NCBI GenBank assembly: GCA_023301465.1
Contig: JALZUQ010000013.1
Location: 3,286-67,285, forward strand
Reading direction: 5' to 3'
Source: Oligoflexales bacterium
Lineage (GTDB): Bacteria > Bdellovibrionota_B > Oligoflexia > Oligoflexales > JALZUQ01
Length of the DNA stretch: 64,000 nucleotides
Positions within the stretch are counted from its first letter, which is position 1; every line of letters begins with the position of its first letter. The notes beneath the pieces were generated by a model. It was not told the DNA's origin, did no database searches, and saw only the letters and a list, made by a program, of their open reading frames with translations. Made by a program: the position numbers and the translations under genes. Of this stretch, positions 7,917 through 61,492 are shown piece by piece.

Positions 7917-9731
7917 ATGTGCACTGTGATTGCACTTCTAACAAGCCGACTAGCATATATCCAAATTATTAAACCCGAACAATACATTAAACAAGCGGAT
8001 GCCAATTTCAAATCACGCATCCAAGTAAATGCACCAAGAGGTGTTTTTTATGACAGAAACAATCAAATCATCTTAGGAAACAAAAAAGTATCAAACTTTG
8101 TCTTTTTTCGTCAAAAAAAACTACCTTCGAACGAAATCATTCAAACCGTTGCAGAAACTATAGAAAAACCTATACATTACATTCAATCAAAAATAAAACA
8201 ATCCTACTTACAACCTAAATACATACCAATCGTTATTAAACGTAACTTAAATCTCTCTGAAATTTCTGAAGTTGAAAACAAACTTTCACAAGTGCCGGGG
8301 TTTGAAGTCATGACACAACCTGGGAGGTCTTATAGTAAGGGACAGCCACTTCACATGCTAGGCCACCTTGCAGAAATAAGTCGCACAGAACTTAAAAAAT
8401 CTGAAAACGAAAACTACAGCAGAGGTGATCTTGTAGGAAAAAAAGGGCTTGAAAGAATATTTGAAAAAGAACTTGTTGGAAAAAAAGGACTTAAAGTTGT
8501 CAATGTTGATGCTAGAGGAAGCCTTGTAGACCCAAATCAAAACGAATACTCTAAAAAACCAATCCCCGGACACAATATACACCTCACCATTGATTATGAT
8601 TTACAAAATTTTGTTTTTGAAACTTTCCGGCATAAACGTGGGGCCGTCATTGCGATGGATCCCAGAAATGGAAAAATCCTTGCCATAAAAAGCTCTCCAA
8701 CATATCCTCCTGAGCTTTTTCAATCGCAACTATCAACAAAAGCTTGGAATATTATTGCCAACAACCCTTTTGCTCCATTGATTGATAAGACGATACGTGC
8801 TGAATATCCTCCAGGAAGTTTATATAAAGTAGTGGTAGGACTTGCCGCCCTACAAGAAAACAAAATCAATGAACACACGACCTTTAAATGCACTGGTCAC
8901 TTCAATGTGAATAAAGAAAAATTCCATTGTCATAAACGATCAGGTCATGGAAGGGTCAATCTAAAGCAAGCAATGCGGTACTCATGTGATTCCTTTTTCT
9001 ATCAAATTGGCCTCGAACTAGGAGTCGATAAAATTGCCAGCTATGCAAAAAAGTTTATGCTTGGCAGCTCTTTTGGTATCCGTTTTGGTACAGAAAAAAC
9101 TGGATTAATCCCTACCCGTGAATGGAAATATAAAAAGAAAAAAGTTGCTTGGAAACGCGGAGAAACTTTACCGGTATCTATTGGACAAGGTTTTAACCTC
9201 ACTACCCCACTTCAACTTGTTAATTTATTTTCGAGTATTGCCAACGGGGGAAAGGTATGGAAGCCTTATGTTGTTCAGAGAACCAGCGATTACTATGGAA
9301 AAGTGATCAAGGAGTTTGAGCCTGAATTATTAAGTAATATTAATGATATCAATCCAGAACATTTTGAACTCATAAAAAAATCATTAATTGAGGTAACAAC
9401 CCACCCAAAAGGAACAGGCCGGCTAGCAAAATCATCTATAACAGAAATTGCCGGCAAATCGGGTTCGGTACAAGTCGTAAAGCTTAAGAGGTATGCAAAA
9501 GGCGAACAAGTTAGCATGCTCTGGAAAGAACACGCTATTTTTGCTGGATTCGCACCTGCTAATAACCCCAAAATTACGGTCTTGGTTTTTTCGGAACATG
9601 ACAACTCGGAAGAAGGCGGTGGTAAAGCTGCTGGCCCTATTGTCAAAAACATCATCGAGCACTATCTTTCTATCGAAAACCAAAATGGAGGAAAAAGACT
9701 TGGCGGATATCCAAATCAAAAGTCCGGCTGA
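7917..9731 (+). CDS. mrdA: Penicillin-binding protein 2 (elongasome transpeptidase)
   Basis: 604 aa with a PBP dimerisation domain plus a transpeptidase domain. Active-site motifs are present: PGSLYKVV (SxxK), a SCD element (SxN-type) and KSGSVQ (KSG). The true start may lie upstream of ATG 7917 (see finding). Confidence 0.9.
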   Translation: MCTVIALLTSRLAYIQIIKPEQYIKQADANFKSRIQVNAPRGVFYDRNNQIILGNKKVSNFVFFRQKKLPSNEIIQTVAETIEKPIHYIQSKIKQSYLQPKYIPIVIKRNLNLSEISEVENKLSQVPGFEVMTQPGRSYSKGQPLHMLGHLAEISRTELKKSENENYSRGDLVGKKGLERIFEKELVGKKGLKVVNVDARGSLVDPNQNEYSKKPIPGHNIHLTIDYDLQNFVFETFRHKRGAVIAMDPRNGKILAIKSSPTYPPELFQSQLSTKAWNIIANNPFAPLIDKTIRAEYPPGSLYKVVVGLAALQENKINEHTTFKCTGHFNVNKEKFHCHKRSGHGRVNLKQAMRYSCDSFFYQIGLELGVDKIASYAKKFMLGSSFGIRFGTEKTGLIPTREWKYKKKKVAWKRGETLPVSIGQGFNLTTPLQLVNLFSSIANGGKVWKPYVVQRTSDYYGKVIKEFEPELLSNINDINPEHFELIKKSLIEVTTHPKGTGRLAKSSITEIAGKSGSVQVVKLKRYAKGEQVSMLWKEHAIFAGFAPANNPKITVLVFSEHDNSEEGGGKAAGPIVKNIIEHYLSIENQNGGKRLGGYPNQKSG

Positions 9732-13244: not shown

Positions 13245-13616
13245 GTGAATACTTTTCTAGTTTTACACATCGTCACCATCACACCATGTCTTGTTATTGG
13301 TCCTTTTATTCTTTTTAGAATTAAAGGAGACCGGTTTCACAAAATATTAGGAAGAACATGGGCTACACTGATGCTGATCAGTTGCATACTTTCTTTTGGG
13401 GTTCGCTCAGAAGAAAACCTCACTTGGCTTCACGGCTTAGCTGCTTTTACGATTTACCAATTACTCAAAGGTATTTGTAATGCACGCAATCACAATATGA
13501 ATGGCCATAGAAGAAACATGGTCGGCTCATACATCAGAAGCTTAGTTGCTTTTATCTTTACACTACAACCAACTCGATTCATTGGCGGTCAACTGTTTAA
13601 ACTATTTGGTTTTTGA
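13245..13616 (+). CDS. Small polytopic membrane protein (DUF2306-like pattern)
   Basis: 123 aa with a GTG start and 3-4 predicted TM helices. LHIVTITPCLVIGPFILFR...HKILGRTW resembles the DUF2306 N-terminal signature. Confidence 0.4.
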   Translation: MNTFLVLHIVTITPCLVIGPFILFRIKGDRFHKILGRTWATLMLISCILSFGVRSEENLTWLHGLAAFTIYQLLKGICNARNHNMNGHRRNMVGSYIRSLVAFIFTLQPTRFIGGQLFKLFGF

Positions 13617-13716
13617 ATACCGTAAAACCATTGCCAGCCCATTACTTAGTCAATTAAAGTGTGTTTTACTCGTATCTATTGCTAAATTGACCCTCCACTG
13701 CTATCAAACAACCCAA

Positions 13717-13737
13717 TTGAGAATGATTATCAATAAA
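13717..13737 (+). promoter_or_regulatory. Candidate Fur-family operator
   Basis: TTGAGAATGATTATCAATAAA is an imperfect palindrome (14/17 self-complementary). It matches 14 of 19 positions of the E. coli Fur consensus GATAATGATAATCATTATC. It ends 10 nt upstream of the ATG of a His-rich exported protein. The AT-rich background raises the chance of a random match. Confidence 0.25.
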
Positions 13738-13746
13738 GGTTACTCC

Positions 13747-15075
13747 ATGAAAACAAAACTTAACGCACTCGTCTTTATTTTGAGCTTAATACTAACTATG
13801 ACGACCCCAGCCGAAAATACATACGCACACGGAGACCATGACCACGATGAACACAAAGAAGAGATGCTTATTAGCTATCTTTCTGGTGCAAGCAGTCAAA
13901 TCCAAGAAGTCCAAAACAACTCTCTGTTAAGCCCCAAAGAAAAAATGTTGATGGCAACAGAAATTCTCATCGACTCACTTCCCCAAGCTCACGAGCATGC
14001 GTGCTCTGGAAATTGCAAAGATAAAAAAGCCGTGGGCTTTAAGGGTTCTTTAGCTAAATTTGGAAAATTTATTATCCAACTACCAAAAGCAGCTAGAAAA
14101 TCTATTGCTACTGGACTTAAAGGAGCTCTTGATTTTGCTGTAGAACCTAACATGTTTGGTAAAGTCGAACATATAATCACCTCACTAAAAAGAAAAGGCC
14201 ATACTAGAGTTGCAGAGCTTTGGCATCGTCATGGAATGATCTCAACCTTCTTTGTTGCAACCATCATTGGGGTTACTTACTTTCCTTACACAATCGTTAC
14301 TGAGTTTGCTGAGTCTTTAGTTTTAGGCCCTGCTCATGTTTGGTGTACTTTCTTTCAGATGCAATACTTGATGGGAGTCACATACTCTTTAAAATACATT
14401 GATACATTTGCTCTCATCATAAATTACCTTGTCAAAAAAAGGTTGAAGTCGCCTTATCATTTCCTCGATAACTCGTTGAACCTAACATTCATCGACCTAG
14501 AATTAAAGATAGCCCTTGAAGTCAGCCAAGAAACCCAAGCAAAGCAAGTTCAAAAAATTGCAGATATATCGAATGATTTTATTAGTTTAAAAACAAAACC
14601 ATTTCTCAAAAAAATTGCAATTCATACAAAGGATATCAATCAAAAAAAAATAATCAGAAAATTTCGAGAATTTTTTGATTCACAAATTATCATGGCAAGA
14701 CTTTGGCACGACAACTTAATGTTTATGGGTGAGTCCTTAAGGGAGTTAGTACAAATTCGATATAATGAAGCCATTCATGAAGCCGAAGAACACGTTTTGC
14801 AAACTGTATCTGAAAAAGACATTGATACTGTATTCAGAAAATCTCTTGCAATGGTCAACAAAAGACTGAGAATTATACGAAAACATTATTCTGATTGGGA
14901 AGCATCAGGCAAAGATGATCTACAAAAACGTGAAAAAATTGAAAAAGATTTTATTGAGTTCATAAGAGTAATGACAAATCATGAACCAGATGTCTTTGAC
15001 TTAGACATGTCATTTCAAAACTTTATTGAATTAAGAGACATCGATAAAAAATTGAGTTGCCAATCTGGTTTCTAG
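13747..15075 (+). CDS. Exported His-rich (HGDHDHDEH) membrane-associated protein of unknown function
   Basis: I take ATG 13747 (MKTKLNALVFILSLILTMTTPAENTYA, a signal peptide) as the start. The track start 13546 overlaps the upstream gene. The mature N-terminus is an acidic His cluster, and central hydrophobic helices are present. Confidence 0.5.
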   Translation: MKTKLNALVFILSLILTMTTPAENTYAHGDHDHDEHKEEMLISYLSGASSQIQEVQNNSLLSPKEKMLMATEILIDSLPQAHEHACSGNCKDKKAVGFKGSLAKFGKFIIQLPKAARKSIATGLKGALDFAVEPNMFGKVEHIITSLKRKGHTRVAELWHRHGMISTFFVATIIGVTYFPYTIVTEFAESLVLGPAHVWCTFFQMQYLMGVTYSLKYIDTFALIINYLVKKRLKSPYHFLDNSLNLTFIDLELKIALEVSQETQAKQVQKIADISNDFISLKTKPFLKKIAIHTKDINQKKIIRKFREFFDSQIIMARLWHDNLMFMGESLRELVQIRYNEAIHEAEEHVLQTVSEKDIDTVFRKSLAMVNKRLRIIRKHYSDWEASGKDDLQKREKIEKDFIEFIRVMTNHEPDVFDLDMSFQNFIELRDIDKKLSCQSGF

Positions 15076-16309: not shown

Positions 16310-17761
16310 ATGCTAAAAAAGCCAATCATCTTCTCTATCTGCATCCAGTTTGCTCTGGCTGTAGGCTGTGCAGACGATGCTCCTAAAACTCGTGAAAGAC
16401 TAATCACCAAACAAGCTGAACTTACAGACGCTCTTCCGATCATCTTTCCAAGAGCAAATAGTGTCGATTGCTCTAATGAAACGTCCCATATCGATAGTGG
16501 CGAAATTTTTTCTTTAACCCAATACCAAGTTACCCCCGACAGCATTATTTTTAACAATATGCTTGGTAGTCCCAGCATTCAAAATTCCATTGTAAAAAAC
16601 ACAAGGATTGGCTCGAAGTGGCAAAGAGAGTGTGGACAACTAAACGAGCACAACGGACTTGCTTGCAAACAAAGCGGAACGAATGTTGAAATAAATTTTC
16701 TTTTAACCGAAACAGGCGGCCTTTTACAAGCATGTGATCGTGTCGTGGATTTTCCTAGAGAATCTCCTGAAGCTGTTGCAGTTACAACAGCACACTACCT
16801 TGAAGAGTCTCACCAAACATTTAAAAGAAATTTTCCAGAACTAAAACTGAAACAAGTTGAGTTAGAGATTTTTCCTATTTTTGAATCCATTTTTGACTTC
16901 TTTTATAAACCGGAAGAAAGACAAACCACTCTTGGTTACTACGACGCAAACAATCTAGCTTACCTCCCAAACCAACAAAAAATTGCTGTTTACCCCGTCA
17001 AAGAAAAATCGTCTGTGTATCTTTGGGATTCAAGATTTCCTGCGTGGCATGAAATGGCTCACCACATTGATTTTGCTACCTCTAAAAGATACCGAGATTG
17101 CAGCATAGGTATCAATGAGATCGGTTCTGACTCTGGTCATTTAAGCCGAAAAGTTTGTGGTGCAGAAGCAGAAGCTCTAGCTGATCTCCTTGCATTTGCA
17201 ACTGGGCCTAATTTAGAAGATCACTTATATGGGCTAAAATGCCTTGACGCATTACGTAATATCAAAGACGGCACTTTTAAAAACACCGATACAAAAGTTC
17301 TTAATAACAATATACTTTCATACTTCTACGAGCAAACAGGCTTTAACCTCAAAGAACAAACACATGATGAAGATGCATTTGGAAACCAAGTACGCACATG
17401 TGAAAGACCTGACTATAGAGAGATTCACACTCTTGGTGCCATTCAAGGACATCATATTTATGCACTCTCGATGTTAGCTATACGAGCATTCAATATTCAA
17501 AGTGAATTAGAACGATCTGACTTCTTATATAAAACTGTCGTTCGTATGATGCGTAGACTTAATAAAAACTATAGAAATATCCCTCTTCAAGGCCTAGGCA
17601 GAATATACTATGTATTTCAAAATGTTATAAATCAAACCATAAAACAATCTTCATTAAACCCTGAAGCAAAGCAAGCATTGAAGATTGAAATATGCAGAAA
17701 ATCTAGAAAACAAATACAAGATGTTGGCTTTAACGTGTTTCAAAATTGGTGTAGTAACTAA
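16310..17761 (+). CDS. Lipoprotein with HExxH zinc-metallopeptidase motif
   Basis: 483 aa with lipobox LAVGC and the motif PAWHEMAHHIDF (HEMAH). I recognise no further family-level similarity. Confidence 0.45.
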   Translation: MLKKPIIFSICIQFALAVGCADDAPKTRERLITKQAELTDALPIIFPRANSVDCSNETSHIDSGEIFSLTQYQVTPDSIIFNNMLGSPSIQNSIVKNTRIGSKWQRECGQLNEHNGLACKQSGTNVEINFLLTETGGLLQACDRVVDFPRESPEAVAVTTAHYLEESHQTFKRNFPELKLKQVELEIFPIFESIFDFFYKPEERQTTLGYYDANNLAYLPNQQKIAVYPVKEKSSVYLWDSRFPAWHEMAHHIDFATSKRYRDCSIGINEIGSDSGHLSRKVCGAEAEALADLLAFATGPNLEDHLYGLKCLDALRNIKDGTFKNTDTKVLNNNILSYFYEQTGFNLKEQTHDEDAFGNQVRTCERPDYREIHTLGAIQGHHIYALSMLAIRAFNIQSELERSDFLYKTVVRMMRRLNKNYRNIPLQGLGRIYYVFQNVINQTIKQSSLNPEAKQALKIEICRKSRKQIQDVGFNVFQNWCSN

Positions 17762-26873: not shown

Positions 26874-29378
26874 ATGGAAAAAATTGAAGTATTTGGTGCT
26901 CGGGAAAATAACCTTAAAAATTTTGATGTAGATTTTCCTAGAGATAAATTGATTGTCATCACAGGTGTTAGTGGCTCAGGCAAGAGTTCCTTGGTTTTTG
27001 ACACTATCCTTGCTGAATCACAAAGACGTTTTTTTTATACCCTATCAAACTACACAAGGCAGTTTTTAAATATTCAAGACAGGCCAAAGGTTAGAAAAAT
27101 CAACGGTGTATCACCGGCAATTTTTTTGGCTCAAAACGAAACCGCTCCATCATCTCGTGCAACGGTTGCCTCACTCACCGATATTGGTGAGTTACTTGGA
27201 GTTTTGTTTGCAAGACATGGAACAAAACTTTGCCCTGATCATGGACTAGAAACCACTGGCTCTAGCCTAAAGAGTATTGTTTCTGAGGTACAACGAAAGT
27301 TCAAAAACAAATATATGCTGGTAAGTGCTCCCATCATCACGGACAAAAAAGGTAAATACAGCAAAGAACTAAAAAAGCTCATGGACGATGGTTTTCAACG
27401 TTTTTTTATTGATGGTGAGATGATTACTACTGAAGACGAAGTACCTTCTTTGAGTGGAGCTCACAAACACACCATTAAACTCGTTGTAGACTTGGTAAAA
27501 GCAGATCAAGCATCTACAAAAAGACTTCAAAGAGCAATTGAAGTAGCTTTGAAGCATGGTGGAGAGCATGTTGAAATCACATTAAAAACCAAAGAAGATT
27601 ACGATTTCAAAAACAGTGCCACCTATTCTCTTCAAAATGGTTGTCCTGATTGTGGGTTTAGTTGGCCTAAACTAGACTCGCGTTATTTTTCAAGCAACTC
27701 CCAAGGCAGGTGCGAAGAGTGTAATGGCTATGGATACTTTGATACCAGCGAAGAAGGCACACCTATAAAGCAAGACCTTGCATTTCAAATGAGGTACTGG
27801 GAAGACTGTGAGTTTTGTGAGGGCACTGGACTTCTTGAGGACTTAGAACACGTTCAAATTGAGGAAACCAATATACATGAGCTATATCAATATAGTTTAA
27901 GTGAACTGCATGGCGTGGTAAAAAAACTAAAGTCTCCCACGAAGAACCCTGCCTTTTTAAGAATTCAAACTGAAATTCTCACAAAAATCACTCAACTAAC
28001 TGATATGGGTTTGGGATATTTACAGCTTTTTAGAAGAATCAAAACCATCTCAGGCGGCGAACTTCAAAGGCTTCGACTTGCAAGCCTTTTGAATGCAAAC
28101 CTTAGTGGTATTATGTACGTATTTGATGAGCCGTCTCAAGGGCTTGCACCATCTGAAATTGAAACCATTGCTAAAATTCTACTGAAACTCAGAGATCGAG
28201 GGAATTCGTTATTTGTGGTGGATCATGACGAAATCATGATGGAGTACGCAGATATTATTTACGATATGGGACCCGGTGGTGGGCCAGAGGGTGGAAGGCT
28301 TCTAAGTCAATTTGCTCCAAAAGACGCAAAGCTTCACTCAAAAACATCTCATTCTGCCATGGCATTGTTTGAATATCAAAATTCAAAAAAGAGTCCCAAA
28401 CCAAAATCATCCACCATCAAAAAAAACGATGATTTTTTAGTGCTTCACAAACCCGAGCTAAATAATTTAAAGATAAAGTCTGTCAAGTTTCGAAAAAAAT
28501 CTATTAATATCGTGTCAGGAGTTTCTGGTGCTGGAAAATCCAGCCTTACAAAAGGTGTTTTGCATTATGCTCTCACTCAAGTGACTGACAAAAAACGGAA
28601 AGGCCCAGTAGAATCCGAGTTTTTTGAAAGCATTGAAAACTCTAATGAAATTGAGCATGTTTACCTTGTTAACAGAAAGCCACTCGCTAAAAGCAGTGTG
28701 AGCACACCAGCAACTTATCTTGATATATACTCAGACATACGCAAACTCATGGCGAAAGTCCCAACAGCACAAGTGCTTGGATTGACCATTAAAGACTTTT
28801 CATTTCATTCAAAAGGCGGAAGGTGTGAAGTTTGCGGCGGCCGTGGATATGAGTCTGTGACGATGAGGTTTTTACCAGACACAAAAACAGTTTGTTATCA
28901 CTGCCAAGGAAAACGTTTCGATCAAGCGGTCCTATCAGTACAGTACAACGGCCTAAATATCTCTGAAATTCTTAACTTGTCTATCGGCGAGGCTATTAAG
29001 GTTTTTGAAAACCATAAAAAAATTGCTTCCAAACTTCAAAACGCTATCAACCTTGGGCTTGGGTATCTTAAATTAGGACAGCCTACCTCTACTTTCTCCG
29101 GAGGAGAAGCTCAACGCATGAAGTTAGTGCCTATCGTATCCAAGAAAAAACCTGCTTGGATTATCTTAGACGAACCGACCATGGGGCTTCACCATCAAAA
29201 CATACTACAACTCACCACGGCTCTTCACGAACTCGTTAGCCGTGGCTTTACCTTTGTCATTATTGATAATGCCCCAACCCTAATTGAGCGTTCTCACTGG
29301 CAAATTGAACTGGGACCGGGTTCGGCTGAAAACGGTGGTAAGATTATGTTTGAACGAAGCATTAAAACGAAACACTAA
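26874..29378 (+). CDS. uvrA: UvrA-family excinuclease ATPase, short form lacking the insertion domain
   Basis: 834 aa. N-terminus ARENNLKNFDVDFPRDKLIVITGVSGSGKSSLVFDT, two ABC modules (LSGGELQRLRLA; FSGGEAQRMKL) and zinc modules (CPDCG...CEEC...CEFC; CEVCGGRG...CYHCQG). The start abuts the pdxA stop with a 0-nt gap. Confidence 0.85.
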   Translation: MEKIEVFGARENNLKNFDVDFPRDKLIVITGVSGSGKSSLVFDTILAESQRRFFYTLSNYTRQFLNIQDRPKVRKINGVSPAIFLAQNETAPSSRATVASLTDIGELLGVLFARHGTKLCPDHGLETTGSSLKSIVSEVQRKFKNKYMLVSAPIITDKKGKYSKELKKLMDDGFQRFFIDGEMITTEDEVPSLSGAHKHTIKLVVDLVKADQASTKRLQRAIEVALKHGGEHVEITLKTKEDYDFKNSATYSLQNGCPDCGFSWPKLDSRYFSSNSQGRCEECNGYGYFDTSEEGTPIKQDLAFQMRYWEDCEFCEGTGLLEDLEHVQIEETNIHELYQYSLSELHGVVKKLKSPTKNPAFLRIQTEILTKITQLTDMGLGYLQLFRRIKTISGGELQRLRLASLLNANLSGIMYVFDEPSQGLAPSEIETIAKILLKLRDRGNSLFVVDHDEIMMEYADIIYDMGPGGGPEGGRLLSQFAPKDAKLHSKTSHSAMALFEYQNSKKSPKPKSSTIKKNDDFLVLHKPELNNLKIKSVKFRKKSINIVSGVSGAGKSSLTKGVLHYALTQVTDKKRKGPVESEFFESIENSNEIEHVYLVNRKPLAKSSVSTPATYLDIYSDIRKLMAKVPTAQVLGLTIKDFSFHSKGGRCEVCGGRGYESVTMRFLPDTKTVCYHCQGKRFDQAVLSVQYNGLNISEILNLSIGEAIKVFENHKKIASKLQNAINLGLGYLKLGQPTSTFSGGEAQRMKLVPIVSKKKPAWIILDEPTMGLHHQNILQLTTALHELVSRGFTFVIIDNAPTLIERSHWQIELGPGSAENGGKIMFERSIKTKH

Positions 29379-30017: not shown

Positions 30018-30530
30018 ATGAAGAAAACGATTTTAACGATAGCACTATTCGCAACTATTTTATCATGTGGCAGCACTCAAAACGCATTCGGTTCATCTAG
30101 TGAGCAGTCTATTGATAGAGTTGAACAAGCAGTGACACAATTTGTAAATGAATGTTTTTCAGATGATGTGAAGATAATCTCTGCAGAAAAACCAGTAAGT
30201 CATCTATTAACGGCAGCATTAAAAGCTGAACTAGAACTACGCAAAGATCTACTCATCCCGCTTAATGGAAAATCCTTTAAAGTTCGAGTGACCCAATCGT
30301 TACCAAATCATCACAGCAGCATAGACTCAGATAAGTGGAACTGTGATGACTTAGATAACTGGCTCCATGAAAAACTTTACTCAAATAATAAAGACTTGAG
30401 TCATCAGTATGGTTTATTGACTGCTGAAGCTTTAACGACTGACGACACTTCGGCAATGATCAGTTATGTTAGCTATCACTACAAAGGCAATGACAAGCTA
30501 ATTAAAATCAAACTTTATAGTGCAAACTAA
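30018..30530 (+). CDS. Hypothetical lipoprotein
   Basis: 170 aa with lipobox ILSCGS. No recognisable domain. Confidence 0.5.
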   Translation: MKKTILTIALFATILSCGSTQNAFGSSSEQSIDRVEQAVTQFVNECFSDDVKIISAEKPVSHLLTAALKAELELRKDLLIPLNGKSFKVRVTQSLPNHHSSIDSDKWNCDDLDNWLHEKLYSNNKDLSHQYGLLTAEALTTDDTSAMISYVSYHYKGNDKLIKIKLYSAN

Positions 30531-30550
30531 TTCTGTCATTTTTCTTAAAA

Positions 30551-30598
30551 ACAAAACCCCGCTTGCATTGATTCAATACAAACGGGGTTTTGTTTTTT
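30551..30598. terminator. Bidirectional rho-independent terminator
   Basis: CAAAACCCCG ... CGGGGTTTTG is a 10-bp stem flanked by an A-run upstream and a T-run (TTTTGTTTTTTT) downstream. It sits between convergent genes. Confidence 0.7.
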
Positions 30599-30610: not shown

Positions 30611-31858
30611 CTACTCTAAAACTTTTAATGGTTCTGCTGTGTTTTCTAATAAGTAGACTACTGGGTCTATGTTAGCATCCACCACACTTTGGATAATTTC
30701 ATCTCCGGGGTAGAACCCAAGACCAAACATACCTTTTGCGGCAGTTGGACTAAGTTCAAAAGTAAAACAAAAAACACCGTGTTCTCCGTAAGCCCAATCA
30801 CATGTGTCACCAGACGCAACATATAGCCCACTTGCTTGCATTGGTTTATAGTTATTCCACTTGGACATTTGATTTGCCATTTCTACAAATGCTTTTTGAT
30901 CGTCAGTTTTTGCTATTTTAGACTTCGAGTGCCCCCACGGATAAAGAATTAACTCTGAGTACGTATGAAAACTAATCATCGTTTTAATATTTTTGTGGGA
31001 TTCAACAAACTTTTTGACTGATAAGATCTCTGGCTCAGTAAATGCTTTTTCACCTTTGTATACAGATGACCTCGGATTACTAGATGAACCACCTGTCCCC
31101 CACTTGTAGCCGTAGTTTCTATTTAGATCGACACCAACATGTTTACTATCTTTTATTTTACTTCTATTCTTTCTCCAGAACTTATAAACACCATCTTTGA
31201 TATCATGTATTGCACCATCTGGATTAATAAGAGGCACAACATATATGACACGCTTTCTCATTAAGTCTCTAAAATCCACGTCTTGCTTCATTAAATCTGA
31301 AATCTTCTGAATCATTAACAGTGGCACTTCTGTGCTAAGGTGCTCTCTAGCGTGATGTGTTCCAAACATCACTAGTGCTGGCTTTGAAAGTTCATTTGCA
31401 AACCCATCATAAGAAATCTTTACCCCTAATTGCTTTCGGCCTTCATATGACTTACCTAGCTCAAAAAGCTGCATATGTTTTGAGTTTTCTTTTACAAGCT
31501 TATTGAGCTCTACATTTACTTCATCATAAGTATGGTAGTCTGCATCACGTGTAGGGAACTCCAAGGTATCCGCCAAGAAATCAAAAAGACTAAATATTCC
31601 CGTTGAACTTTGAACAGCAGTTGAAACCTCGCCCACAATAGTAGGATTCAAACCATCTATGTTTTGCAGATCTTTAAGCTCATCTTTAGTTAGAACCGTA
31701 GAGATATTATTGGCATTAATGGAATCAATATGGATATAATTTGCAAGGTCATCTACCTCTGATTGACTTTGAAAAGGAATCTCTACTTGATAAACACTTT
31801 GTGCATATATAGTTGATTGACACGAAATTAATATTAGGAATAGTTTTAATAGTTTCAT
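30611..31858 (-). CDS. Secreted M14-family zinc carboxypeptidase
   Basis: ATG 31858 (MKLLKLFLILISCQSTIYAQ) follows a GGGGGAAG Shine-Dalgarno. The HxxE zinc motif is FGTHHAREHLSTE, and NRNY, SFHTYSE and FTFEL motifs of carboxypeptidase A/T-type M14 enzymes are present. Confidence 0.85.
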   Translation of the reverse strand: MKLLKLFLILISCQSTIYAQSVYQVEIPFQSQSEVDDLANYIHIDSINANNISTVLTKDELKDLQNIDGLNPTIVGEVSTAVQSSTGIFSLFDFLADTLEFPTRDADYHTYDEVNVELNKLVKENSKHMQLFELGKSYEGRKQLGVKISYDGFANELSKPALVMFGTHHAREHLSTEVPLLMIQKISDLMKQDVDFRDLMRKRVIYVVPLINPDGAIHDIKDGVYKFWRKNRSKIKDSKHVGVDLNRNYGYKWGTGGSSSNPRSSVYKGEKAFTEPEILSVKKFVESHKNIKTMISFHTYSELILYPWGHSKSKIAKTDDQKAFVEMANQMSKWNNYKPMQASGLYVASGDTCDWAYGEHGVFCFTFELSPTAAKGMFGLGFYPGDEIIQSVVDANIDPVVYLLENTAEPLKVLE

Positions 31859-31965
31859 CACGCTTCCCCCAAAGACTTGATTATTACGTAATTCTATCAA
31901 GTTTTTGGCTGAGCGGTCAATCTTATTAAAAGGAAAGCAAAGATGACTAAGTCATTATGACTTTA

Positions 31966-33498
31966 TTAAAGTGACCTTAAACGTTTTTGTGCTCTATCTA
32001 AAAATATCTTTTGTTCGTGCTTTGAGTTTTTTACAGAACCTGCTCCAAGTAAAACGACCCTACCGTTTATGATACCAAAAGCAACACGCACTGTGGAATT
32101 CATTTTTAGCTCATATACGCCAGCTTGAAGCACCATTTTTATTCTAGCATTCTTCTTATTTTGAATAGCATCTAGTAAAAGCTTATATGCAGTTCTCAAA
32201 TCTTTTAAGTTATTTGGTTCCTCAAAAAATTTCTTTATTTCTTTTTTAATGAGCTTTGTACCAGCAAAATTGAGCATAAAATCTAATTTTGCGACATCGG
32301 ATAACTCGTTAATTTCTTCTTTGGTTTTATGACCATTCTCGTCATCATCACCTGACACAGGTAACACCATTGGCCCTCTAGTTTTTACCTTTTGTTTCTT
32401 ACGACCTTGATTAATTTTATGACTTCTATCGTTTGTTTCTGTATTAGGTTTAAATACTTTTGGGGATGGCGATAAAGATACGTCCGTAATAGTCTCTGGT
32501 ATTTTAATCTTATCAATTTTTTTAGATATTAATACATGAACATATCCTAATACCGACTTCTTAACGACAGATCCACTGACATTACTTCGGACATGATCAG
32601 CAGAAAGGATGCTGAAAATCACTTTTTCAATAAAAGACTTAATCAAAGGATCATAAGGGGTTTTTTTAAAGATTTTACGTGTATATCTATCACTTAATTT
32701 TTTGATTTTTTTCTCTGATCTCCGTAAATCATAATATGATCCGGGCAGTAATTTAACTAAACCAAGAATGAATGGTTTTAAATCACTCCATATTTTCATA
32801 CCTCGATCAACTAAAAAAGCATAACGATTTTTCTTTTGAATAAACCTGACATCTTTATCTGATATATTATCACTACCGTCATTTCTTATGATTAATGCAA
32901 GACCAATCTCTGTGAAATATTTAAAAATTTTTGTGGCATCTGTCTTACTAATAGATCGGAAGAAAGCTTTTGAAAAGTAGCTCTTTATCAAACCATCTGT
33001 TAACTCAGGCTGTATTTCTTCCCAAGATGGGTATGTCAATAAGTCAGTCATTAAAATTCTTTTAGTCGTTGTTCCTAAACCATTTAGCTCTTCGCTACTC
33101 CATACAATTTTTTTTCTAGGCCTTATTAATCTTGATTTTTTTCTTAATTGTGGATTTAACTTAAAAAATGAAAGTAAACCTTCTAGACCAACGTATGAAT
33201 GTGCTGAGTATTCTGGCGTTTTGAGTTTTTTAGCAACTAACTCCCATTGTTTGTCACTAACGCCTTTTAACTGAAAATATGAATGAATCAATTCAAACAA
33301 CTGAAAGTGCTCATTAGGACTTTCTTTGATTACTGACATTTGTTGGACTGTTAATGCCGACTCTAAATAAGAATAAATCAGTTCGGAATTTAAGCGAGTG
33401 TCTGTTCTTCCCTTAAAATGATCATGACACTCTTCAGTAGAAGAAAAGCAAGGCGGTGAAACTAAGAACAAAATTAAGCTAAAGACTAAAGTCTTCAT
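31966..33498 (-). CDS. Exported protein with C-terminal HigB/RelE (Gp49-like) toxin-fold domain
   Basis: ATG 33498 gives MKTLVFSLILFLVSPPCFSS (signal peptide). About 400 aa of unknown function follow. The C-terminus is ...AGVYELKMNSTVRVAFGIINGRVVLLGAGSVKNSKHEQKIFLDRAQKRLRSL, which matches the G-L-[FY]-E-L-[RK] / R-V-x-F / V-V-L-L / K-K...A-x-K-R pattern of Gp49/HigB toxins. Confidence 0.5.
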   Translation of the reverse strand: MKTLVFSLILFLVSPPCFSSTEECHDHFKGRTDTRLNSELIYSYLESALTVQQMSVIKESPNEHFQLFELIHSYFQLKGVSDKQWELVAKKLKTPEYSAHSYVGLEGLLSFFKLNPQLRKKSRLIRPRKKIVWSSEELNGLGTTTKRILMTDLLTYPSWEEIQPELTDGLIKSYFSKAFFRSISKTDATKIFKYFTEIGLALIIRNDGSDNISDKDVRFIQKKNRYAFLVDRGMKIWSDLKPFILGLVKLLPGSYYDLRRSEKKIKKLSDRYTRKIFKKTPYDPLIKSFIEKVIFSILSADHVRSNVSGSVVKKSVLGYVHVLISKKIDKIKIPETITDVSLSPSPKVFKPNTETNDRSHKINQGRKKQKVKTRGPMVLPVSGDDDENGHKTKEEINELSDVAKLDFMLNFAGTKLIKKEIKKFFEEPNNLKDLRTAYKLLLDAIQNKKNARIKMVLQAGVYELKMNSTVRVAFGIINGRVVLLGAGSVKNSKHEQKIFLDRAQKRLRSL

Positions 33499-33682
33499 GT
33501 GTTTTCCTTGGCTGAGCAATTAACCAAGCTCAGTTATCATTCAAGCACTACTTGAGTCAATACAGGAGAAACCTAAAGAACCTTCACCACTTAAGTAATT
33601 GTATTTATTAATATTTACACAAAGTGTTTTCATCACAAACTTACCACGATTAAATTTGTTTTTATCTGCATTCATATTTCCA

Positions 33683-35107
33683 TCAAAATAAAAAGTTAAA
33701 GAAATATGCAATTGGGATTACCATGAACATTTTCCATTTATATTCAGAGTCTGTTTCTCCTATAAGCGAATCATGATCTACTGATCCAGTTTCATCCACT
33801 ACTAACTTTGCCTGTTTCCTTCGAGCAATCATACTCTCACTAAGTTGATTAGCAAATTCAGATCCATCGTAACAAATAAAAACAAGCTCAGAATTTAAAT
33901 TTGCTGAACGAGGATCTAAATTATATGTTCCTAAAATAGAAACTTTATCATCTATCACAGCACGCTTAGAATGAATAGTCCATATGGAAGGTGTCGCATT
34001 GGACTCAGGGTAGTTTTCCAAGTATTTACCGTCGTAAGCAAATAATTTAAAACCTGAAAATTTTAATTCTGAAATATCAGGATATAATGCAGAAATCGTA
34101 TAGTAACCATCTGTTGAGGCAAGGCTGTTTGTAAGAATCGTCATTTTTATTCCACGATCACTAATAGACTTAAGTATGCTTCGACCATTTTGTGTTAAGA
34201 CTAAATATGGACTTTCAATGAGCATTTTATCTTTTGTTTCTTGAACTAGCTCTGTAATAACCGAAAACACTCTTCGATTACTCACTGCGGAACCGGGGTA
34301 ATCAGTCACAAACCTTGAGTTTTTACATTCCGATGTTTGTGGCTCTATTTGTAGTTTTTTTAGCTTATCAAGCATGGCATGATCATTTTCAATGAGTTTA
34401 AATAGATTTTTTTGTGCTTGATTCATTTCAACTTCAACAGTCTCAGGGTTTACACTCCATGTAGAATCCCAGTACAAATCAAAACTCTTACGAATAGATG
34501 TTACTAAGTCACCTTCAATCATAATATCACTATCCAAAAAATTCCATTTTGCTGGCATATCAAAGTAGTCATTAGCAATATTACGCCCACCAATCATAGC
34601 GATGCGATCGTCTACTGAAAGTAACTTACGATGTGTTCGATGCTGAACATTAAAAAGCTTAGATAGAGAAGAGGTATTATAATATTTAACCTCAACACCG
34701 TACTTCATTAATACTTTTGCATAGTAAGGGCTGAGTTTAAACACAGGCTTTGCAAAATCTACAAGAACGCGAACCTTCACACCTTGTTTTGCTTTTTCAA
34801 TCAATGCATTTGTTAAGATACGACTTGCACTATCAATTTCGTAAATAAAGAACTCTAGGTCTAAGGATTTTTTTGAAGATTGAATCATTTCAAGGCGGTG
34901 CAACAAAGATTCATAACCAATATCAATCAGTGTTATTTTTTGAGGGTTAAGACTCCTAACATCTGTAGAGTCTACTTGATGCTTTGGGTCACTCCAGTGG
35001 TTTTCAGTGACGTAAAGCACAACCATGAAATAAGAGTAAACCCCTAAAACGGCAACCACTACAAACCCAGTTGAATAAATCATCAGTTTTTTAAGAATTT
35101 TTCCCAA
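33683..35107 (-). CDS. Phospholipase D / cardiolipin-synthase-family enzyme, membrane anchored
   Basis: 474 aa with an N-terminal TM helix and two HKD motifs (HRKLLSVDDRIAMIGGRNIANDY; IHSKRAVIDDKVSILGTYNLDPRS). Confidence 0.85.
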   Translation of the reverse strand: MGKILKKLMIYSTGFVVVAVLGVYSYFMVVLYVTENHWSDPKHQVDSTDVRSLNPQKITLIDIGYESLLHRLEMIQSSKKSLDLEFFIYEIDSASRILTNALIEKAKQGVKVRVLVDFAKPVFKLSPYYAKVLMKYGVEVKYYNTSSLSKLFNVQHRTHRKLLSVDDRIAMIGGRNIANDYFDMPAKWNFLDSDIMIEGDLVTSIRKSFDLYWDSTWSVNPETVEVEMNQAQKNLFKLIENDHAMLDKLKKLQIEPQTSECKNSRFVTDYPGSAVSNRRVFSVITELVQETKDKMLIESPYLVLTQNGRSILKSISDRGIKMTILTNSLASTDGYYTISALYPDISELKFSGFKLFAYDGKYLENYPESNATPSIWTIHSKRAVIDDKVSILGTYNLDPRSANLNSELVFICYDGSEFANQLSESMIARRKQAKLVVDETGSVDHDSLIGETDSEYKWKMFMVIPIAYFFNFLF

Positions 35108-59536: not shown

Positions 59537-61492
59537 ATGAATAGAATGATAACAACTTCGCTACTTGGCTTTGCAAGTTTTGCAATGGCATTTGAGCCAG
59601 TATTTGCTCAGATGAAGCCCATGCGGCCAAAACCAAAGCCCATGCGACCCAGACCACAACCTAAACCACGTCCAAAACCACAACCTAAACCACGTCCAAA
59701 ACCACAACCTAAACCACGTCCAAAACCACAACCTAAACCACGTCCAAAACCACAACCTAAACCACGTCCAAGACCGCAACCTAAACCGCGTCCAAGACCG
59801 CAACCTAAACCACGTCCAAGACCGCAACCTAAACCGCGTCCAAGACCGCAACCTAAACCGCGTCCAAGACCGCAACCTAAACCGCGTCCAATGCCTCAAC
59901 CGAAGCCACGTCCAAGACCAATGCCTCAACCGAAGCCACGTCCAAGACCGATGCCTCAACCGAAGCCACGTCCAAGACCAATGCCTCAACCGAAGCCGCG
60001 TCCAAGACCGATGCCTCAACCGAAGCCACGCCCAAGACCGATGCCTCAACCGAAGCCACGTCCAAGACCACAACCAAAACCGCGTCCGAAGCCGCAGCCG
60101 AGACCAATGGTTAAACCAATGCGACCAATGGGACCGAAGTTTAGACCAATGCCTAAACCAAGACCAAAAGCACGTCCGCAATATAGAGGTAAAACAGGAT
60201 ACTTTTTCACAAGTAGAGGCAGCTGTGCATACTTCTTAAGAGGAAACTTCCAAAGATTTACTCTTAAATCATACTGTAGACCATTGATTGCTGGCACAGG
60301 CAGTAACTCATGTACGTATGCATATGACGGAAGGTGTGATGATGGAAGATCTGGCTCTCACTCATCTGCATGTAGGTATGGCACGGACCAAAATGATTGT
60401 AAGTACACTAAACCTTTAGCTCCTATCCCAACAGGACCTAACTCGTGTCAGTTTGCTTATGATAAACAATGTGATGATGGAAGGCTTTACGCACAGAGTT
60501 CAACTTGTGACTACGGAACGGATCAATATGATTGCAATCGTATTTTCGGACCAGCTCCACAACCGAACCCAGTAGAACCTAACTATGTTGCTACACAAAT
60601 TAAAGTGAATGTTCCTTATGGATCACAGATTAAAGTGAACGGAAACTCTGTGAAGCAAACGACAACATCTACTGAGTTTACAAAGTACAACTTATCTGAT
60701 GCACAGATAACATCTACAAATATCAGTGTTCAAATCGCTGAAAAAGATGGATATCACACTGCAAGCAGAAAAGTTTACTTAAAAGGTGGGGAGTCTCATG
60801 AGTACAATTTCTTTAACGTAAACTCACAACGTCAAAAGAATGCTAATGGAAAGACATCCATTTCCATTAAAGCACCAAAAGGATCTCAATTAACCATTTC
60901 TGGAAAAATCGTAAACATGGGTACGCAAGTAAAAGTATTCAATGCTACGAACATTCAACCGGGAATGATTTCTCAAGGGTTTAAACTTAAGGTGACTTAC
61001 AAAGCGTTAACCTCGAAAGGCTATGAATCCATCACTCACGATCGAAGTTTCACACTTGTGGGAGGCGAAGATCACTACTTGGATTTTGCAAACGAGGGAA
61101 GTATCGGTATAGCAAATCTATACACATCATTAAACACAGCAGCTTTAGGTGCTTGTGAAAAAGGTGTAAACGTAGATCTAGCACTATACGGTGGTGACTA
61201 CTACAGATTAACGAAGTACAACATCCTCGTAGATGAAAGTAATTGTGCAGACTCCAATGCACTCAATTGGGTAAAAGTTGGACCAGTTACTTACTACGCA
61301 ATATCTGTAGACACTGCTAGCAACGGTGCTTACCAGTACAGATTAAGTGATGGCACAAGAACCAACCTTGCAATTTTCTCAGATAAGTATGATGAATCAA
61401 CATTGGCTTCTGAGTTAAAATTCGCAAAACCACAGTCTGGAGAAGTTTACTACTCCAACGGTTATGAGCCAGAAGTAGAGGAGAAACCGTAA
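59537..61492 (+). CDS. Secreted Pro/Lys/Arg-repeat protein with twin Cys-rich modules and a beta-rich C-terminal region
   Basis: 651 aa with signal peptide [24 protein letters not shown] and GGGGGG upstream of the ATG. About 190 aa of PKPRPxPQ-type repeats are followed by two CxYAYDxxCDDG...C.YGTDQxDC modules. A terminator lies downstream. Confidence 0.7.
59612..60185 (+). repeat. In-frame tandem repeats (24-nt and 30-nt units) encoding PKPRPKPQ / PKPRPRPQ / [10 protein letters not shown]
   Basis: Read directly. The unit ccacaacctaaaccacgtccaaaa occurs 4 times, ccgcaacctaaaccgcgtccaaga-type units 5 times, and ccaatgcctcaaccgaagccacgtccaaga-type units about 6 times, plus degenerate flanks. 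That is about 17 contiguous units with no spacers. Confidence 0.9.

Follow-up and report, generated by a model that had tools for sequence, protein, structure and literature searches.

We analyzed a 64,000-nucleotide stretch of DNA from an Oligoflexales bacterium (contig JALZUQ010000013.1, positions 3,286 to 67,285; hereafter, the window), focusing on a gene on its minus strand at 31966–33498. Its 510-residue product has a signal-peptide-like N-terminus, a basic body, a probable flexible linker, and a C-terminal domain that is probably a highly diverged relative of the RelE/HigB toxins (Gp49 clade, Pfam family PF05973). RelE-like RNases are regarded as essentially intracellular components of toxin-antitoxin systems, and the 2012 survey that recorded a secreted Tox-RelE knew of only one (Zhang et al., 2012; PMC3482391). 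The present case comprises one orphan sequence from one metagenome with sub-threshold homology. It is suggestive, a sequence-based lead for experiment rather than a finding.

The gene and the architecture of its product

The region 31966–33498 encodes one continuous, uninterrupted gene. The coding sequence, identical in the other copies of the locus, has 510 codons plus a stop (TAA, 31968–31966) and starts with an ATG at 33498. A Shine-Dalgarno-like AAGGA lies 6 nt 5′ of this ATG (33505–33509, minus strand; direct sequence reading). The 510-residue product is the one that gene callers also chose; counted from a TTG start, the open reading frame (ORF) spans 31966–33519. A frame of 517 open codons has a chance probability of about 5e-20 at 32% GC, so the ORF is a real gene. 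The ORF of about 510 residues described in an earlier, sequence-only reading of the window was confirmed as a continuous frame with a ribosome-binding site. The gene has a somewhat lower GC content (0.322) than its neighbors (0.345–0.40), and the whole protein is strongly basic (isoelectric point 9.85, net charge +35).

Copies of the locus in a 652-kb ENA scaffold and in a Logan contig were 100% identical to the window and probably come from the same sample. They therefore add no independent variation, and no independent confirmation against an assembly or sequencing artefact that fused two genes. Such a fusion is nevertheless very improbable. An open frame of this length hardly arises by chance, a fusing indel would have had to hit the linker exactly without exposing a stop, and two assemblers gave the same sequence of the locus.

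A candidate internal start was also noted. The in-frame ATG of Met377 (32370–32368) has an AGAGGG 3 nt upstream (site region 32368–32380, minus strand). Initiation there would yield a 134-residue cytoplasmic product containing the entire RelE-like domain, from a site whose spacing is short.

Residues 1–19 (33442–33498, minus strand) resemble a signal peptide in their sequence features and Kyte-Doolittle hydropathy. The N-terminus, MKTLVFSLILFLVSPPCFSS, is exactly as the sequence-only reading quoted it. A Lys-containing n-region is followed by a 12-residue hydrophobic core, Pro-Pro, and C-F-S, and then by an acidic S-T-E-E. Small residues occupy positions −3 and −1 of the putative cleavage site, and we infer cleavage after S19. 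By these sequence features the N-terminus follows the n/h/c pattern that is usual for Sec signal peptides; the segment contains neither a lipobox nor a twin-arginine motif. The same 19 residues hold the highest 15-residue hydropathy windows of the protein and the only hydrophobic one within the N-terminal 470 residues; the only other hydrophobic region is the C-terminal sheet. The charges around the core (MK before it, a net-acidic SSTEECHDH after it) favor an N-in, C-out orientation even if cleavage does not occur, which would put the C-terminal domain outside the cytoplasm. The classical signal peptide named in the sequence-only reading is thus borne out, as a prediction from sequence features.

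The signal-like segment is followed by a basic (isoelectric point 9.7), mostly helical body of no recognizable family (residues 20–320; 32539–33441, minus strand). Three overlapping segments of the body gave no Pfam match at E≤10, and NCBIfam and PADLOC gave no match for the protein. In a full-length, single-sequence AlphaFold model the body had a predicted local distance difference test score (pLDDT) below 50 and is unreliable. The N-terminal body was also searched for a further RelE-like unit and for internal repeats, and both ideas were rejected. Residues 321–400 (32299–32538, minus strand), rich in P, S, T, K, D, and E, are a probable flexible linker, judging from composition and from the model, in which residues 318–400 have no secondary structure and the lowest pLDDT (24–34). 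A predicted disordered linker therefore stands between the body and the RelE-like domain.

Sequence and predicted structure of the C-terminal domain

The sequence-only reading had assigned the C-terminal part to the HigB/RelE (Gp49) toxins, and the residues that it quoted were exact. We place the domain at residues 401–510 (31969–32298, minus strand) and describe it as a diverged, BECR-like RelE/HigB domain of the Gp49 clade, from its best Pfam and PHROG matches, alignment, model, and Foldseek results. PF05973 (Gp49) was the sole Pfam match, with 16.6 bits (E 0.0082) for the last 144 residues and 13.1 bits (E 0.1) for the whole protein. The best PHROG match was phrog_2523 (E 0.012). This is the same family, since genuine PF05973 proteins and Streptococcus pneumoniae HigB match it at 1e-31 to 1e-14.

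We then compared the domain with a family sample of 120 PF05973-annotated proteins, taken from those listed among 2,113 found by a consensus-sequence search (120 of the 120 were annotated). The best phmmer score of the domain was 13.8 bits, and the maximum over 200 shuffles was 10.2. Thirty-one of the 120 members scored at least 7 bits against the domain, a level reached by at most eight members with any shuffle. A hidden Markov model (HMM) of the family gave 10.4 bits, compared with a maximum of 8.2 over 500 shuffles, and the local family HMM ranked the target first among 489 ORFs, real and spurious. In a MAFFT alignment with family members the domain was collinear over about 100 residues, with one 3-residue deletion and 17%–21% identity.

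The structure of the last 118 residues was predicted with AlphaFold from the single sequence. The Gp49 alignment was left out because it would impose the fold of the family. The resulting model (pLDDT 59 overall and 62–87 across the last 60 residues; predicted template modeling score 0.50) contains three helices, four consecutive strands forming a meander, and a long C-terminal helix. The full-length model (pLDDT 37.6) again has these helices, along with three of the four strands. The order of elements had been read earlier as helix-helix-strand-strand-strand-helix; the prediction replaces this with three helices, four strands, and one helix. It agrees with the published description of the BECR fold, in which an N-terminal helical segment precedes a four-strand meander (Zhang et al., 2012; PMC3482391).

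Solved members of PF05973 include S. pneumoniae HigB (6AF3) and Mycobacterium tuberculosis HigB1 (HigB-TAC, Rv1955; 7AWK, 7NBU). When the domain model was searched with Foldseek against 350,542 PDB chains, about 27 of the top 50 matches were RelE-superfamily toxins. The first was Methanocaldococcus jannaschii RelE, and HP0894/HP0892, YoeB, YafQ, RelK, Proteus vulgaris HigB, and Cami1 were also found. HigB1 (7AWK) had 25% identity with the model over 106 columns. For a predicted model, this share of RelE-superfamily proteins among the top matches appears to be far beyond chance. The matches of the C-terminal model in BFVD were unnamed proteins, and those obtained in Foldseek with the full-length model were meaningless.

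The catalytic pocket of HigB1 comprises K58, E66, R68, N73, R77, K95, Q98, and K99, and R68, R77, and K95 correspond to K54, R61, and R81 of RelE (Mansour et al., 2022; PMC9098466). Substitution of K99 by Ala abolishes the toxicity of HigB1 (PMC9098466). In the alignment, E463-L464-K465 (32104–32112, minus strand) matches the E-L-R motif that holds HigB1 E66 and R68, the latter equivalent to RelE K54. R471 (32086–32088, minus strand) matches HigB1 R77 and RelE R61, and K490-N491-S492-K493-H494 (32017–32031, minus strand) matches HigB1 K95-N96-Q97-Q98-K99. By this mapping E66, R77, K95, and N96 are conserved as E463, R471, K490, and N491, and R68 is replaced by K465, at a position where RelE itself has Lys. 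K490 is the counterpart of the essential K95 of HigB1. The counterparts of the RelE trio (K465, R471, K490), together with E463, thus appear to be kept. Q98 is replaced by K493.

Several results weigh against assigning the domain to this family. The Pfam score of 16.6 bits does not reach the PF05973 gathering cut-off of 23.9 bits. Run against Pfam, the reversed sequence reached E 0.0028 with an unrelated family, and among nine shuffles one gave a match at E 0.02; because such decoys reach similar values, the nominal E-values are not significant for this lysine-rich composition. The E-value of the target with the local family HMM was just 0.06–0.1 among the ORFs. In hhalign, the single sequence matched the 120-member family alignment with a probability of just 5.7%, a value that one of 30 shuffles nearly reached. 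The domain is identical to the family at 8 of about 22 strongly conserved positions. No single Foldseek match had an E-value below 0.3, and the confidence of the model is low to medium.

Most of these results would be expected if the resemblance were due to chance, that is, if the domain were an unrelated small alpha+beta domain whose Gp49 match came from its composition and a generic strand and helix pattern. Every profile score is sub-threshold, a lysine-rich composition inflates scores, and the Foldseek matches had E-values of 0.3–2 with a root-mean-square deviation of about 10 Å. However, the same family was at the top in two libraries with scores above every shuffle, and a model made with no family information drew about half of its 50 best matches from the RelE superfamily. 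Moreover, the alignment is collinear over its length and the catalytic residues match. We consider a chance resemblance unlikely, and a RelE/ParE-superfamily fold for residues 401–510 likely. The module is probably best explained as a highly diverged RelE/HigB domain of the Gp49 clade. Of the domain proposed in the sequence-only reading, the choice of family therefore probably stands, as does the RelE-type fold, whereas the score remains below the Pfam cut-off and the structural matches and model confidence remain weak.

The same alignment bears on activity. Three of its features depart from HigB1: K99, needed for toxicity, is replaced by H494; F93 of the core is replaced by S488; and K58 and N73 have no aligned partner, with K454 and N467 nearby. 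The RelE fold could belong to a module that is no toxin, either catalytically dead or repurposed, for example, as the part of an exported basic protein that binds nucleic acids or a surface. The substitutions of K99 and F93 and the small number of conserved positions fit such a module, which would need no antitoxin or immunity protein, and neither gene was found (see below). The paralogues HigB2 and HigB3 are non-toxic despite their fold (Mansour et al., 2022; PMC9098466). Against this, the pocket positions E-L-K, R, and K-N are exactly those retained in the target. Besides, other RelE-family RNases commonly use His in catalysis. A non-toxin module seems rather doubtful to us; given a RelE/ParE fold, the chances that the domain is catalytically active are about even.

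Gene neighborhood and sequenced relatives

The upstream neighbor of the target (33683–35107, minus strand) encodes a PLD-superfamily, cardiolipin-synthase-like protein with an N-terminal membrane helix. The downstream neighbor (30611–31858, minus strand), located where a HigA antitoxin would sit, encodes an M14 zinc carboxypeptidase with a signal peptide. Both agree with the secreted or anchored hydrolases that the sequence-only reading saw on either side. The wider surroundings include opp transporter genes, uvrA, pdxA, and folate genes.

As a reference for the missing antitoxin, also claimed earlier, we used 80 metagenome loci of ordinary PF05973 toxins. Their toxin ORFs have at most 162 residues from the first Met and at most 211 codons from stop to stop. 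In 79 of the 80 loci an ORF of 60–120 residues starts between −30 and +80 nt from the toxin stop, and those that were read were of the helix-turn-helix type. The target differs in being the C-terminal domain of a 510-residue protein, whereas PF05973 toxins are stand-alone cytoplasmic proteins of about 100–130 residues. No small helix-turn-helix ORF flanks the target gene. An HMM built from 56 antitoxins found nothing among the 927 ORFs of at least 30 residues in the window, with the target's own N-terminal portion included; its best score (E 0.08) was 22 kb away. A HigA-type antitoxin was thus found neither adjacent to the target, nor within the 64 kb, nor fused to it. Together, the comparison with typical loci and the HMM search make the absence of a cognate antitoxin well supported for the window, in agreement with the earlier claim. 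No immunity gene was seen directly downstream either, where the gene encodes the M14 peptidase; the ORFs of 56 and 170 residues described below have no family match.

These data bear on another arrangement, a membrane-tethered toxin that faces the cytoplasm, with the signal-like segment as an uncleaved anchor and the N-terminal body as a built-in neutralizer. Multidomain RelE/ParE toxins, including the membrane-anchored ToxM, and fused toxin-antitoxin genes do exist (Gerdes, 2025; PMC11980606), and the AGAGGG-preceded M377 could in principle give rise to a cytoplasmic product. Nevertheless, the charge distribution favors N-in, C-out, the N-terminal body has no antitoxin-like domain, PADLOC found no match, and the neighbors are housekeeping or exported enzymes and not defense genes. 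We regard a tethered toxin as improbable.

The terminator scan found no terminator-like site between the PLD, target, and M14 genes. The M14 gene and a gene for a 170-residue protein converge, and between their ends is a 25-nt inverted repeat (30547–30597), 92% complementary and with a loop of 1 nt. The repeat is probably a bidirectional terminator that closes the PLD-target-M14 run; the simple terminator scan did not report it. The gap between the target stop and the M14 gene is 65 nt and contains a promoter-like site (31891–31920, minus strand) with TTGACC, an 18-nt spacer, TAGAAT, and a TG before the −10 box (extended −10). The M14 peptidase may therefore have its own promoter. A 57-residue JGI protein (P0127) sits in the 90%-identity cluster of the M14 peptidase with no visible similarity to it, which looks like a database clustering oddity.

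The 170-residue ORF (30018–30530, plus strand) has a lipoprotein-type N-terminus, MKKTILTIALFATILSC, and no Pfam or NCBIfam match. A 56-residue ORF with a TTG start (33541–33711, minus strand) occupies the space between the target and the PLD gene, whose 3′ end it overlaps. It was called as a gene in ENA; it has no Pfam match and no cluster relatives and is probably spurious. A mobile-element context was rejected, as there are no tRNA genes and no flanking repeats.

Searches of 5.8 billion clusters (word-indexed) and of 1.84 billion representatives (exhaustive) retrieved only the target itself. Peptide-pattern scans of GTDB genomes and viral contigs gave no relative, tblastn searches of plasmids and phages with the C-terminal domain yielded nothing of use, and phmmer found no match to the target among PDB sequences. 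The window holds no paralogue. A shared N-terminal region with alternative C-termini, the sign of a polymorphic toxin, was likewise not found among the databases searched, in which the lineage is poorly sampled.

The genome itself comes from a deep, poorly sampled lineage. Its PBP2 (window 7917–9731) shares 45% identity with the closest of the 5.8 billion clusters; those relatives that carry a name (41%–42%) are Oligoflexales and Bdellovibrionota metagenome-assembled genomes. A peptide-pattern scan of GTDB species genomes for its UvrA retrieved distant Prevotella genes only. With such sampling, the relatives of an exported protein that evolves fast could simply lie beyond what has been sequenced.

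The target is not the sole orphan-like gene in the window. Three further large ORFs on the plus strand, at 13546–15075 (509 residues), 16310–17761 (483 residues), and 59537–61492 (651 residues), match no Pfam family at E≤1e-5. NCBIfam gave nothing for the first two, and for the third only TIGR03000 (plancto_dom_1), with 43.5 bits against a cut-off of 43.1. The UvrA homologue (26874–29378, plus strand) is short, with 834 residues against profiles of about 924–943 positions, and barely passes TIGR00630 (736 bits against 729.8). Its residues 310–826 correspond to model positions 404–916, so the N-terminal half seems to lack about 95 residues.

Proposed role and comparison with known systems

We propose that the protein is an exported RelE-fold effector. 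The strongly basic precursor would cross the inner membrane through the Sec pathway, and the body of about 300 residues and the flexible linker would serve in targeting, entry, or release. The C-terminal domain would work outside the producer as an RNase warhead, in the manner of the toxin domain that ends a polymorphic toxin or a bacteriocin. In the cytoplasm of the target cell it would, like HigB1, cleave mRNA in the ribosomal A site. An antitoxin would be unnecessary because the protein leaves the producer's cytoplasm unfolded. The fold and the export are supported by the comparisons above, and to these the proposal adds an inferred activity, delivery, and target; for the whole chain we put the chances a little short of even. 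Two further points count against it: an immunity gene, the normal companion of a secreted toxin, was not seen here, and there are no homologues with which to compare conservation, covariation, or architecture.

A predatory lifestyle of the source organism is plausible from its phylum-level placement alone. The most specific form of the exported-effector proposal is a ribosome-dependent mRNase of the HigB/Gp49 clade that, with no immunity protein, is exported, delivered into the cytoplasm of prey or competitors, and halts their translation; we hold this, taken as a whole, to be unlikely. If true, it would be the first Sec-dependent extracellular or predation use of this toxin-antitoxin clade, with self-protection by export alone, and the HigB clade would prove to be recruitable also as an extracellular weapon. 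Two questions would follow: by what route a ribosome-dependent toxin gets to the ribosomes of another cell, and what protects the producer. With a Bdellovibrionota-like genome as its source, the protein would be a candidate for the early shut-off of prey translation.

The sequence-only reading held that this architecture had not been described, which does not stand, since both Tox-RelE polymorphic toxins and multidomain RelE/ParE toxins have been published. Tox-RelE was listed as a C-terminal toxin domain of signal-peptide (type II secretion system-type) polymorphic toxins, with a single instance seen, in Paenibacillus elgii (gi 357015358); the table pairs its class with RHS repeats, a HINT peptidase for release, and the immunity protein Imm54 (Zhang et al., 2012; PMC3482391). 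The target is predicted to share with it a RelE-type BECR domain placed as a C-terminal warhead on a signal-peptide protein, and residues 1–19 would supply the N-terminal secretion signal of a polymorphic toxin. It differs in that RHS repeats, HINT, and Imm54 are not detectable (no Pfam match at E≤10 outside the PF05973 region), and it shows neither a homologous N-terminal region nor signs of cassette polymorphism.

Multidomain RelE/ParE toxins resemble the target in joining a domain of this fold to a membrane or extracytoplasmic element. In ToxM, however, the BECR domain is N-terminal, faces the cytoplasm, and has an antitoxin, ToxR, whereas that of the target is C-terminal and predicted to lie outside the cytoplasm. 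Many multidomain forms with no identifiable antitoxin were left out of the published analysis (Gerdes, 2025; PMC11980606). A 2026 preprint on BECR classification describes RelE-like proteins as predominantly intracellular, unlike other BECR groups.

The best resemblance in sequence and fold is to HigB1 and HigB, with a collinear alignment and shared E-L-[RK], R, and K-N positions. Helices, a four-strand antiparallel sheet, and a C-terminal helix are also common to both, in the target as modeled. These toxins are cytoplasmic proteins of about 120–140 residues with a downstream HigA (and a SecB-like chaperone in the toxin-antitoxin-chaperone, or TAC, system); the target has 510 residues, an export signal, and no antitoxin. 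It is 17%–25% identical to them, scores below the Pfam threshold, and carries the changes of K99 to His and F93 to Ser.

In colicins D and E5 and in the BECR tRNases of CdiA-CT, delivery regions are followed by a C-terminal BECR-fold RNase. They are modular exported toxins of a size similar to that of the target. They belong to other BECR clades, always have an adjacent immunity gene, and cleave tRNA independently of the ribosome; their release is by lysis proteins or type V secretion, whereas the target has a Sec-type signal. Cami1 (8PHB, 8PHJ), one of the top fold matches, likewise carries a RelE-like, ribosome-dependent RNase domain inside a larger protein, but it works in the cytoplasm as a CRISPR-associated effector under the control of cyclic oligoadenylate and has no export signal.

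Because it lacks both the other hallmarks of polymorphic toxins (repeats, a releasing peptidase, an immunity gene, and polymorphism) and the defining features of type II Gp49/HigB toxins (score, size, and antitoxin), we assign the target to neither family. What it is predicted to have in common with Tox-RelE is a RelE-type warhead mounted on an exported protein, an arrangement that is rare but already published.

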